Sequence record: PV654397.1
From: Escherichia phage WPEC5
Length of the DNA: 64,000 bases
Reading direction: 5' to 3' (one strand)
The number at the start of each line of letters is the position of its first letter. Position 1 is the first letter of the stretch. The notes beneath the pieces were generated by a model. The model made no database searches, had not been told where the DNA came from, and saw nothing but the letters and a program-made list of their open reading frames with translations. Positions 14,080 to 15,183 of this stretch are shown in pieces. The position numbers and the translations under genes were made by a program.

Positions 14080-14149
14080 TCACTTCGTTCTCTCGTAACT
14101 CAAGAAGTCACTACGTTTACTTCGTAAACTAGTTCCTTCTGAAAATGAT

Positions 14150-14720
14150 AATGTACTTTAAAAGCTTGACGGGATTTGTTGAGGACTATTTCATCCCCCC
14201 GCAGGGGAATGAAGGTAATAAAAAAGAGACAATTAAGTCTCTCTTGACGATGATGGCATCGGATATTATCGAATTGCGAATTTCTCAAATTTTGGACGGA
14301 TCTTTCCTGTACCAAAATTTAGAGAGCGAAAGCGGGTTGCTCGGTTTCTCTCTATCGCAGTCATATGCAACGGTCGCTGGTCTTTTCATCAACAGCACTC
14401 AGTACTAAACTCTATTCGATCAAAGTAGTACCTGTTCTCAAATTTTGGACGCAACTTTCTTGTAAAATCGCGTCCACAATCCTTGAACTCCCTTAGCAAA
14501 TTCGTAAGGTGCGAACCTTATACATCTATCTAGGAACTCTCTGTGTGCTTATTGGAGTTCTTTATACAGCCGTGTCGCCGTGATTCGTGGTCTTATCTCG
14601 TGTTTGTTTGATTGCCAGTACTCTAACAGGTTTCTTTTGCTGTTCGCTACAACGGTAAAGCTCATCTATCCTTTACATTTTCAAGAGAAGTAGGTTCTCA
14701 TTATCCATTTTTCAATGTCC
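14150..14720. other. non-coding island with multiple stable hairpins (candidate structured RNA or intron remnant)
   Basis: No long minus-strand ORF; locally GC-richer; hairpins at 14189..14213, 14288..14319, 14446..14476, GCGA-tetraloop hairpin 14505..14520; 17-nt direct repeat. Confidence 0.3.
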
Positions 14721-14769
14721 GTTGTCATTTTACAATATACATTATATCACTAGGATGTATTATGTCCAG

Positions 14770-15183
14770 TTACATGTATACCTTTTTCAAATCCTTGGAA
14801 CAACGGTCAAAAATTGTGTTGATGAATTCGACATCCTCTTTGATATTGGAGTCTATAGCATCATTCTCGTTTCTTGTCGTGTTCCTGTATTTGTGTTCAG
14901 GGTGATTGTATACCACCTTGACTACATTATTTAGGTCTACAAAAAATGACGATTTTTGCGTATAGGAAGCCTGAAGCTTAATGAGTTTACCATCGTTTTG
15001 TAGATTAGTCTTGTGAATTAGTTCTTCAATACCATCTAAATGGCTATAGCTATCCTGTTCTTTGACGAATGTAACAGTTACCAGTACTGACTTCTCATCT
15101 CCAAAGTCAGAGATATTTTTAACAGCACTGATGATTTCTAAGTTTGAAAAATCTAATTCTTTTAGCATTACAAGTATTTCCAC
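14770..15183 (-). CDS. hypothetical protein (137 aa)
   Basis: Track ORF. Confidence 0.5.
   Translation of the reverse strand: MEILVMLKELDFSNLEIISAVKNISDFGDEKSVLVTVTFVKEQDSYSHLDGIEELIHKTNLQNDGKLIKLQASYTQKSSFFVDLNNVVKVVYNHPEHKYRNTTRNENDAIDSNIKEDVEFINTIFDRCSKDLKKVYM

Follow-up and report, generated by a model that had tools for sequence, protein, structure and literature searches.

An uncatalogued family of large structured RNAs encoded in a gap between genes of Rak2-like jumbo phages

What is encoded, if not a protein, in the long gap between genes at positions 14080..14769 of the Escherichia phage WPEC5 DNA (accession No. PV654397.1; "the window" is the whole stretch of 64,000 nucleotides that was analyzed)? 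Our analysis shows that a gene in its own right lies there, and that its product is a large RNA with an intricate fold that belongs to a new family. The gap (690 bp) separates the minus-strand open reading frames (ORFs) 13651..14079 and 14770..15183; it is the window's longest stretch without a minus-strand ORF of at least 80 amino acids (AAs), and with a 60-AA cut-off it is the sole internal gap of at least 300 bp. A preliminary description of this locus had pointed to a long stretch without a credible minus-strand ORF, to local GC enrichment and to a set of strong hairpins, and all of these were borne out. The GC content is 0.39–0.42 over 14050-14649, 0.26–0.31 just below and 0.32–0.36 above. 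The hairpins are a C/G-rich one (TTCATCCCCCC/GGGGAATGAA, 14190..14213, here called the GC hairpin; minus-strand RNA folding energy -16.9 kcal/mol, z = -4.2), AAATTTTGG/CCAAAATTT (14287..14320), TGGACGC/GCGTCCA (14447..14476) and, as read on the plus strand, TAAGGT-GCGA-ACCTTA (14505..14520). The six-bp stem of the last of these stands but its supposed tetraloop does not, since GCGA on the plus strand is UCGC on the transcribed minus strand and there is therefore no GNRA tetraloop. The direct repeat, described as 17 nt long, is real and extends over 30 nt, with 90% identity between its copies (14282-14311 vs 14435-14464). Folding against shuffled controls, which had been proposed as a check, gave minimum free energy z values of -4.6 for the minus strand and -3.2 for the plus strand, and on neither strand was any of 100 shuffles equally stable. 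The decisive evidence for structure beyond chance is comparative.

The window phage is a Rak2-like (Asteriusvirus) jumbo coliphage, and the region is 99–100% identical to that of phages EC.P1, Ecwhy_1 and fEgEco12 and 94–97% identical to that of 121Q. The gap is better conserved than its neighbouring genes; the gap alone is 97.4% identical to 121Q and 95.8% identical to the PBECO4 group, while the corresponding values with the flanks included are 94.7% (over 1.7 kb) and 90.5%. Similarity at the DNA level is 66–71% in Mimasvirus (GAP32, CBB, XbC2), in Eneladusvirus (BF, fHe-Yen9-04 and the pEa_SNUABM phages) and in Munch-like Salmonella phages, and it is weak in Alcyoneusvirus (RaK2, K64-1). 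Each Rak2-like genome has two to five such matching places, all in the same orientation and each in an unannotated gap of 600–900 bp. Copies were sought in most of the 121Q genome, where there are four, in one orientation and in four unrelated gene contexts: copy A is the parallel of the window locus, copy B lies between the endonuclease VII and baseplate hub genes and is antisense to its neighbours, copy C lies between gp415 and gp416, and copy D follows the sigma factor gene gp167. The B-type loci have no downstream gene and run into a bidirectional terminator, and they retain all of the modules described below. A scan of viral contigs with the GC-hairpin pattern gave chance matches for the most part. 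The RNA gene is one member of an uncatalogued family with two to five co-oriented paralogs in the Rak2-like jumbo phages. A different stretch of about 2 kb in 121Q (NC_025447, 135194-137161) has no annotated gene and follows an array of paralogous ORFs of about 60 AAs; blastn finds no copy of the RNA family in it.

The preliminary description had also suggested alignment with related phages, and this gave the clearest result. In an alignment of 36 non-redundant homologs RNAalifold finds 72 base pairs, 46 of them with compensatory changes, and a column-pair scan with inspection adds three pseudoknot helices, PK1, PK2 and PK3. In the curated model of 83 pairs, 97.2% of the cells are paired, compared to 80.7 ± 0.4% in shuffles and 39–46% when the partners are slid past one another; 55 of the 83 pairs change on both sides, and there are 488 compensatory cells where shuffles have 130 ± 11. 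None of 500 shuffles matches the observed values on any measure. G.U pairs outnumber A.C pairs by 210 to 20, so the minus strand is the strand that folds. Four of the helices are long-range or pseudoknot helices (P1, PK1, PK2 and PK3; table below). Over the 5' 90 nt the homologs align imperfectly, and P1 was therefore scored sequence by sequence and not by column; each of the 36 homologs has a helix of 5–9 bp there, and at least 10 sequence variants of it occur. PK3 occurs as ACA/UGU, AUG/CAU and AUA/UAU, and single PK2 positions are nearly evenly divided between alternative pairs (for example CG:18/UA:18 and AU:19/UA:16). In addition to PK1 there are three helices in the 3' core: H_i and H_j (GAGAG/CUUUC, loop invariant), and H_k around the second copy of the direct repeat, which forms a hairpin, X2 (14287..14320). 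Both repeat hairpins, X1 and X2, are peripheral; each is present or absent according to the paralog (X1 in some homologs only), and they have a common conserved 3' half that pairs in different registers. E-values from the covariance model, whose calibration was short, are rough.

This RNA has what looks like its own promoter, a putative phage sigma70-type promoter placed directly in front of it (TGGACA-16-TGaTATAAT, 14768..14741 on the minus strand), which scores 11/12 plus the TG extension. In the 36-homolog alignment the TG of the extended -10 is nearly invariant and a TGGRACR/TGAAACG element stands at -35; the -35 element of the RNA is a member of the phage promoter class tGGGACA/TGGAACA/TGAAACG. 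Transcription is predicted from the promoter spacing to start at about 14733-14736. The window has 19 occurrences of TGnTATAAT where 8.4 ± 3.0 are expected, 18 of them on the coding (minus) strand and many with tGGGACA, TGGAACA or TAGACA at -35; they are a general phage promoter class with one member per approximately 3.5 kb of the window. The same class has been described as "divergent RpoD-like" in CBB and GAP32, and the CBB authors place it upstream of DNA-synthesis genes (PMC5259590). At 11328-11348 the window matches the RNA promoter and initial transcribed region in 20 of 21 nt (TGATATAATGTtTATTGTAA), so that the likeness there reaches past the -10 into the first transcribed bases.

At the other end, the stem of an intrinsic terminator (helix 16; 14241..14220), which a consensus terminator scanner overlooked, has compensatory changes in all five of its pairs. 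It is missing from some paralogs (121Q copies C and D, and RaK2). The nhmmer family profile matches 14768..14129 of the minus strand with E = 4e-135 as a single copy, and neither blastn nor nhmmer finds another in the window. The window copy carries all of the hallmarks of the family, namely the profile match, a promoter of the right class, core helices that covary, and the 3' module with its GC hairpin. The "stable small RNA" of the preliminary description is thus a structured non-coding RNA (ncRNA) gene, but not a small one, with about 515 nt plus a 3' module, and it belongs to a multi-copy family. Elsewhere in the window minus-strand ORFs of at least 80 AAs are also lacking from 34967-35446 (which contains a TGaTATAAT promoter at 35419), 29404-29813, 8306-8662 and 5275-5574; these ORF-poor stretches may hold small genes or more RNAs.

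Table. Positions of the RNA gene, its predicted parts and associated features (window coordinates unless a locus is named)
Feature	Position	Strand	Remarks
-35-like element TGGACA	14763..14768	-	RNA's own putative promoter; same spacing in 36/36 homologs
Extended -10 TGaTATAAT	14741..14749	-	TATAAT invariant in 36/36 homologs
RNA body, about 515 nt	14220..14736	-	predicted start to end of terminator U-tract; nhmmer family profile
P1, 5' strand ACAACGG	14719..14725	-	pairs with CCGUUGU (14649..14655) in loop of H_b
Hairpin H_b	14646..14661	-	helix 2; loop is 3' strand of P1, hence a pseudoknot
Domain H_c	14566..14643	-	helices 3, 4 and 5: outer and inner helix, variable apical hairpin
PK3, ACA + UGU	14573..14575 + 14522..14524	-	H_c internal loop with GAUAGAcauAU junction
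Hairpin H_d	14534..14560	-	helix 6; compensatory change in 6/6 pairs
Hairpin H_e, UAAGGU-UCGC-ACCUUA	14505..14520	-	helix 7
Single-stranded block UAAGGGAG	14488..14495	-	invariant alignment columns
Helix H_f	14435..14488	-	helix 8; around peripheral hairpin X1 (14447..14476), one direct-repeat copy
Hairpin H_g	14401..14433	-	helices 9 and 10
PK2, AUCGAA + UUCGAU	14415..14420 + 14268..14273	-	H_g loop with strand adjoining H_i
3' core: PK1, H_i, H_j, H_k	14275..14371	-	helices 12-15
PK1, GUUGC + GCAAC	14367..14371 + 14336..14340	-	in 3' core
Box 1, CGUCAAG	14243..14249	-	conserved; direct repeat with box 2
Intrinsic terminator GAGAC-UUAAUU-GUCUC, then U6	14220..14241	-	-10.8 kcal/mol, z = -4.4
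GC hairpin UUCAUUCCCC-UGC-GGGGGGAUGAA	14190..14213	-	downstream of terminator; sequence-conserved
Box 2, CCCGUCAAG	14165..14173	-	conserved; inside conserved block CAAAUCCCGUCAAG
Conserved downstream segment	14080..14164	-	up to start codon of next gene
Hairpin GUUUAC-GAA-GUAAAC	14115..14129	-	in downstream segment
Motif GAACGAAGUGA	14080..14090	-	in downstream segment; hairpins with GAACGAAGUGA-type loops
TGnTATAAT sites	63008, 58903, 55599, 52427, 51989, 49766, 47759, 44332, 40805, 35419, 27103, 14749, 11347, 9027, 6137, 5599, 3176, 3111	-	
Annotated short ORF, fEgEco12 g257	3001-3216 of L002		
Annotated short ORF, fEgEco12 g256	3450-3566 of L002		
Annotated short ORF, 121Q gp516	3156-3311 of L001		
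Annotated short ORF, A4_511	1048-1197 of L008		

A conserved 3' module lies beyond the terminator. Its GC hairpin (helix 17) has no compensatory change in any of its 10 pairs, and no homolog is without it, be it one of the bacterial copies discussed below or a paralog that lacks the terminator. On either side of the terminator and GC hairpin is a CGUCAR box, and the two boxes co-vary as direct repeats (both are CUUCAAG in RaK2). Segments related to the downstream segment, with covarying hairpins, follow all of the copies, again including the bacterial ones and the loci with no downstream gene. The GC hairpin and the boxes probably serve for recognition, by a protein or during processing. Three other ideas, all of them considered by eye, were dropped for lack of conserved support: a λ nut/boxA-like antitermination site, a late promoter (TATAAATA) or sigma70 promoter within the 3' module, and anti-Shine-Dalgarno mimicry by UAAGGGAG.

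Copies of the unit are known outside of the jumbo phages as well. It is present in two of 5426 complete E. coli genomes, in both as a complete copy that runs from the promoter through the RNA and the terminator to the 3' module. In strain LR-29-1 (NZ_AP027515, RNA at 3478900-3479700) it sits in an approximately 10-kb island at ffs that also carries an IS3-disrupted tyrosine integrase, a resolvase, and DuOB, DUF488 and mSLOG-DUF4326 genes, the last three of which match the PADLOC candidate defence system PDC-M45. The island's 318-AA protein encoded upstream of the RNA and the 2.5 kb of DNA downstream of it have no match in the phage collection. One metagenome copy is found between a large serine recombinase gene and CI/Cro-type repressor genes, adjoining modABC-modE-galE, in the accessory ("moron") position of a prophage or satellite; others are directly downstream of a DUF5983 gene, one of these contigs (L304) also having a ParE-like toxin gene. 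The metagenome copies retain the phage-type promoter and bring new compensatory variants, and in the L309 copy PK2 is ACUGAUA/UAUCAGU. No protein is common to all of the contexts and no flanking gene recurs; the gene downstream of the RNA at locus L305 is not similar to the downstream ORF of the window, searches of the immediate neighbours in Pfam, PHROGs and PADLOC were uninformative, and a search with the DUF5983 neighbour protein returned two close relatives only. A plasmid search found no copy, and a scan of bacterial genome contigs with an unspecific 16-mer gave chance matches only, none of them upheld by nhmmer, so that the distribution in bacteria is under-sampled. Because the phage-type promoter is kept and no protein is shared among the contexts, the unit is autonomous and horizontally mobile, and it has moved whole (promoter, RNA and 3' module) into bacterial islands and a prophage-like element. 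The LR-29-1 island has about 700 bp more of non-coding DNA after the RNA unit (L288, 12500-13200), with several hairpins and AT-rich palindromes and no phage match. The window itself encodes, at 27257-27574 on the minus strand, a DUF4326-like protein that is 42% identical over 109 AAs to the mSLOG-DUF4326 protein of the ffs island.

Could the gap nonetheless hold a missed protein gene, or a type I toxin-antitoxin (hok-like) locus with a structured mRNA for a small peptide? Loci of the hok type are multi-copy, reside on mobile elements and are strongly structured, and short "hypothetical protein" ORFs are annotated within the RNA gene, on either strand (for example 121Q gp516, fEgEco12 g256 and g257, and A4_511). 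Across the family these ORFs are not maintained. On neither strand do 80% of the homologs share a stop-free stretch of 60 codons or more, which also removes the frameshift-corrected ORF that the preliminary description had named as a competing possibility; around the best candidate ORF the frame shifts on either side, reading frames differ on the two sides of the GC hairpin, and stop-to-stop lengths range from 21 to 106 codons. No conserved small ORF in a fixed frame, such as a type I toxin-antitoxin or other small-protein gene should have, was found across the homologs, the conserved blocks that contain ATG covary as RNA helices, and indel lengths are not multiples of three. A coding function is hardly credible, and in the absence of a conserved ORF and with shifting frames the annotated short hypothetical proteins are probably spurious. 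Membership in a known RNA family, be it as a degenerate or ORF-less group I intron or as a diverged RNase P RNA, tmRNA, 6S, HEARO, ROOL or GOLLD, might be suggested by a pseudoknotted fold of ribozyme-like complexity and by HNH endonuclease genes close by, and T4-like phages do carry group I introns. However, the whole window gave no match at gathering thresholds with the 4227 models of Rfam 15 (cmscan), those for group I introns, tRNA-like elements, RNase P and tmRNA that had been proposed for the scan included, nor did the Rfam covariance models of ROOL, GOLLD, OLE, HEARO, raiA, RNase P RNA or 6S RNA; at E <= 10 the region and eight homologous loci gave noise only, and ARAGORN found no tRNA or tmRNA. 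The suggested group I intron remnant fails on each count: the Intron_gpI core (P3–P9) is matched at neither threshold, the element lies between complete ORFs and interrupts none, and it has its own putative promoter with P1 only about 10–30 nt from the -10. The order of the conserved blocks is unlike that of RNase P, and a by-eye likeness between ACAGAGCAACCCGCUU and ACAGAACCCGGCUU, the CR-V sequence of RNase P, was dropped for lack of conserved support. A hidden member of a known family is very improbable. The genome papers on the RaK2-like phages CBB and fEgEco12 do not describe the RNA, and a virome-wide RNA screen reported motifs of 29–151 nt only (PMC10690425); the family is missing from Rfam and otherwise undescribed in the literature that was searched.

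Two further readings, at the cis or DNA level, compete with the free-standing gene, active in trans, that we favor (below). The main rival holds that each copy is a replication origin, at which the promoter would yield a structured pre-primer RNA (about 0.5 kb) that stays hybridized close to the G/C-run hairpin and from which DNA synthesis would start in the conserved, AT-rich downstream segment; island copies would then be replicated by the phage replisome or be decoys of it. The distance from promoter to 3' module, about 520–600 nt, is near the length of RNA II, which in ColE1 is roughly 550 nt. In ColE1 RNA II and in the promoter-dependent T4 origins oriF and oriG, too, a promoter gives a folded RNA near 0.5 kb in length, with conserved G/C-run and AT-rich DNA behind it, and the T4 origins likewise are present as several dispersed copies. 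Also in keeping with an origin are the two to five dispersed, co-oriented copies per genome, the autonomy and mobility of the unit, the order of its 3' parts (a non-covarying GC hairpin after the RNA, then the direct-repeat boxes, then an AT-rich stretch with hairpins) and the reported place of the promoter class upstream of CBB DNA-synthesis genes (PMC5259590). On the other hand, in most copies (some paralogs are without it) a covarying intrinsic terminator separates the putative start region from the RNA body, the fold with its four long-range helices and many invariant junctions is far more elaborate than those of RNA II, oriF/oriG and other known primer RNAs, no antisense regulator was found, and the E. 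coli island has no replication genes. The cumulative GC skew of 121Q has no inflection at the four copies and tracks the direction of transcription only, which is a weak argument, and the replication or packaging element put forward in the preliminary description received no specific support from the tests made. We regard an origin as unlikely, if worth keeping in mind. According to the other reading the RNA is a giant cis-regulatory leader: its folded domain would respond to a ligand, a protein or an RNA and thereby decide whether transcription passes the terminator into the conserved segment and the genes downstream. The window, L305 and three of the four loci in 121Q have the order of structured domain, terminator, conserved segment resembling a 5' untranslated region and co-directional gene, which agrees with this, as does the lack of the terminator in some paralogs. 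But the copies between endonuclease VII and the baseplate hub are antisense, have no downstream gene and nonetheless keep all of the modules, and it is because of these B-type loci that a giant leader or riboswitch is improbable; moreover, the downstream genes are unrelated from locus to locus, and inspection of the alignment, the only means used here, shows no anti-terminator-like segment that covaries with the terminator stem.

The gap is a free-standing minus-strand gene for a large structured ncRNA, which in our view probably acts in trans as a folded particle. The promoter would drive a transcript that folds from its extreme 5' end into a compact multi-pseudoknot structure and, in the window copy, ends at the intrinsic terminator after about 515 nt; the RNA would then work in trans, alone or bound to protein, and be neither a message nor a leader. 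Action in trans is suggested by the unrelated nature of the four contexts, in one of which the RNA runs antisense to the flanking genes, by the unit's own promoter and terminator and its lack of coding capacity, by an architecture of ribozyme grade, and by movement of the whole unit between mutually hostile mobile elements. Its role would most likely lie in the conflict between mobile elements and host: it might, for instance, bind up a host or phage factor or imitate one, and the island and prophage copies might then be a counter-measure or a common weapon. Several points weigh against this explanation. Conservation continues for about 140 nt past the terminator and the GC hairpin there does not covary, so that the 3' module poorly fits a simple model in which the RNA ends at the terminator and could have a DNA-level or cis function; this module is what mainly keeps a cis or DNA-level rival alive. 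The paralogs without a terminator would be read into their downstream genes. For every member of the family the start, the 3' end and the abundance of the RNA are predictions, and action in trans is something that we infer. The lack of a recurrent flanking gene leaves no candidate for a partner protein, and the gene neighbourhoods of a handful of non-phage copies are the only source of the link to conflict.

By analogy, the closest known molecules in kind would be ROOL and GOLLD, which are ornate RNAs of phages and prophages; they are large, have multiple pseudoknots and no known partner protein, and form nanocages in cryo-electron microscopy structures (PMC12286853). Like them, the window RNA is a phage ncRNA in the 500–800-nt class with covariation and multiple pseudoknots, and it appears as an independent transcription unit with no adjacent partner protein; leaving oligomer formation aside, it has the features by which an "ornate phage RNA" is recognized (phage location, more than 400 nt, a covarying multi-pseudoknot fold and no coding function). 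It has no sequence or structure homology with ROOL or GOLLD by the Rfam models, and so it is an analogue rather than a member. The hosts differ as well, ROOL and GOLLD being found in Firmicutes, rumen and marine phages and the present family in enterobacteria and T4-like jumbo phages. In addition, unlike ROOL and GOLLD, the window family is not near tRNA islands, has two to five paralogs per genome and has a conserved 3' module after the terminator. OLE, HEARO and raiA are alike in size class, in having complex folds defined by covariation and in their location in long GC-rich intergenic regions; they are unrelated to the window RNA by Rfam search, and for OLE and HEARO the partner proteins are defined and their genes lie close by, where none is evident for the window RNA. 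In the distantly related jumbo phage PA5oct, RNA-seq identified four ncRNAs of 236–619 nt (PMC7318152), which are similarly long non-coding transcripts in ORF-free gaps. The 3' end of its ncRNA004 (L311, 1380-1440) has a C-run/G-run hairpin, UUUCCUUCCC-AAAC-GGGGAGGAAAU, like the GC hairpin of 121Q copy D. Homology to PA5oct ncRNA001-004 was sought with nhmmer (--max) and with a covariance model of the 3' core, and none was found.

The family accounts for two to five unexplained gaps of 600–900 bp in every Rak2-like genome, and it corrects the annotation of GenBank records in which spurious "hypothetical proteins" have been placed within RNA genes. Few conserved molecules in microbiology are as poorly understood as the large ornate RNAs (ROOL, GOLLD and OLE, for example), and most of these belong to organisms that are hard to manipulate. 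Here an RNA of comparable complexity (about 515 nt, four long-range helices and 55 covarying pairs from just 36 sequences) is found in culturable phages of E. coli, Klebsiella, Salmonella, Erwinia and Yersinia (121Q, PBECO4, RaK2, GAP32 and CBB among them), so that knock-outs, northern blots, pull-downs and cryo-electron microscopy should be straightforward. Function can be approached in testable ways through its upkeep in multiple copies and through the copies that a defence-type island and a prophage-like element have captured. More speculatively, and we put this forward as a tentative idea whose chances are below even, this new ornate class may be a machine or particle made of RNA (a ribozyme, a cage that assembles itself or a tightly binding decoy for a factor of host or phage) that the Rak2-like phages need in several paralogs and that defence islands and prophages have stolen together with its promoter, to be used against these phages or for the same purpose. 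If that were true, an ornate RNA would be an RNA-level weapon common to warring mobile elements.

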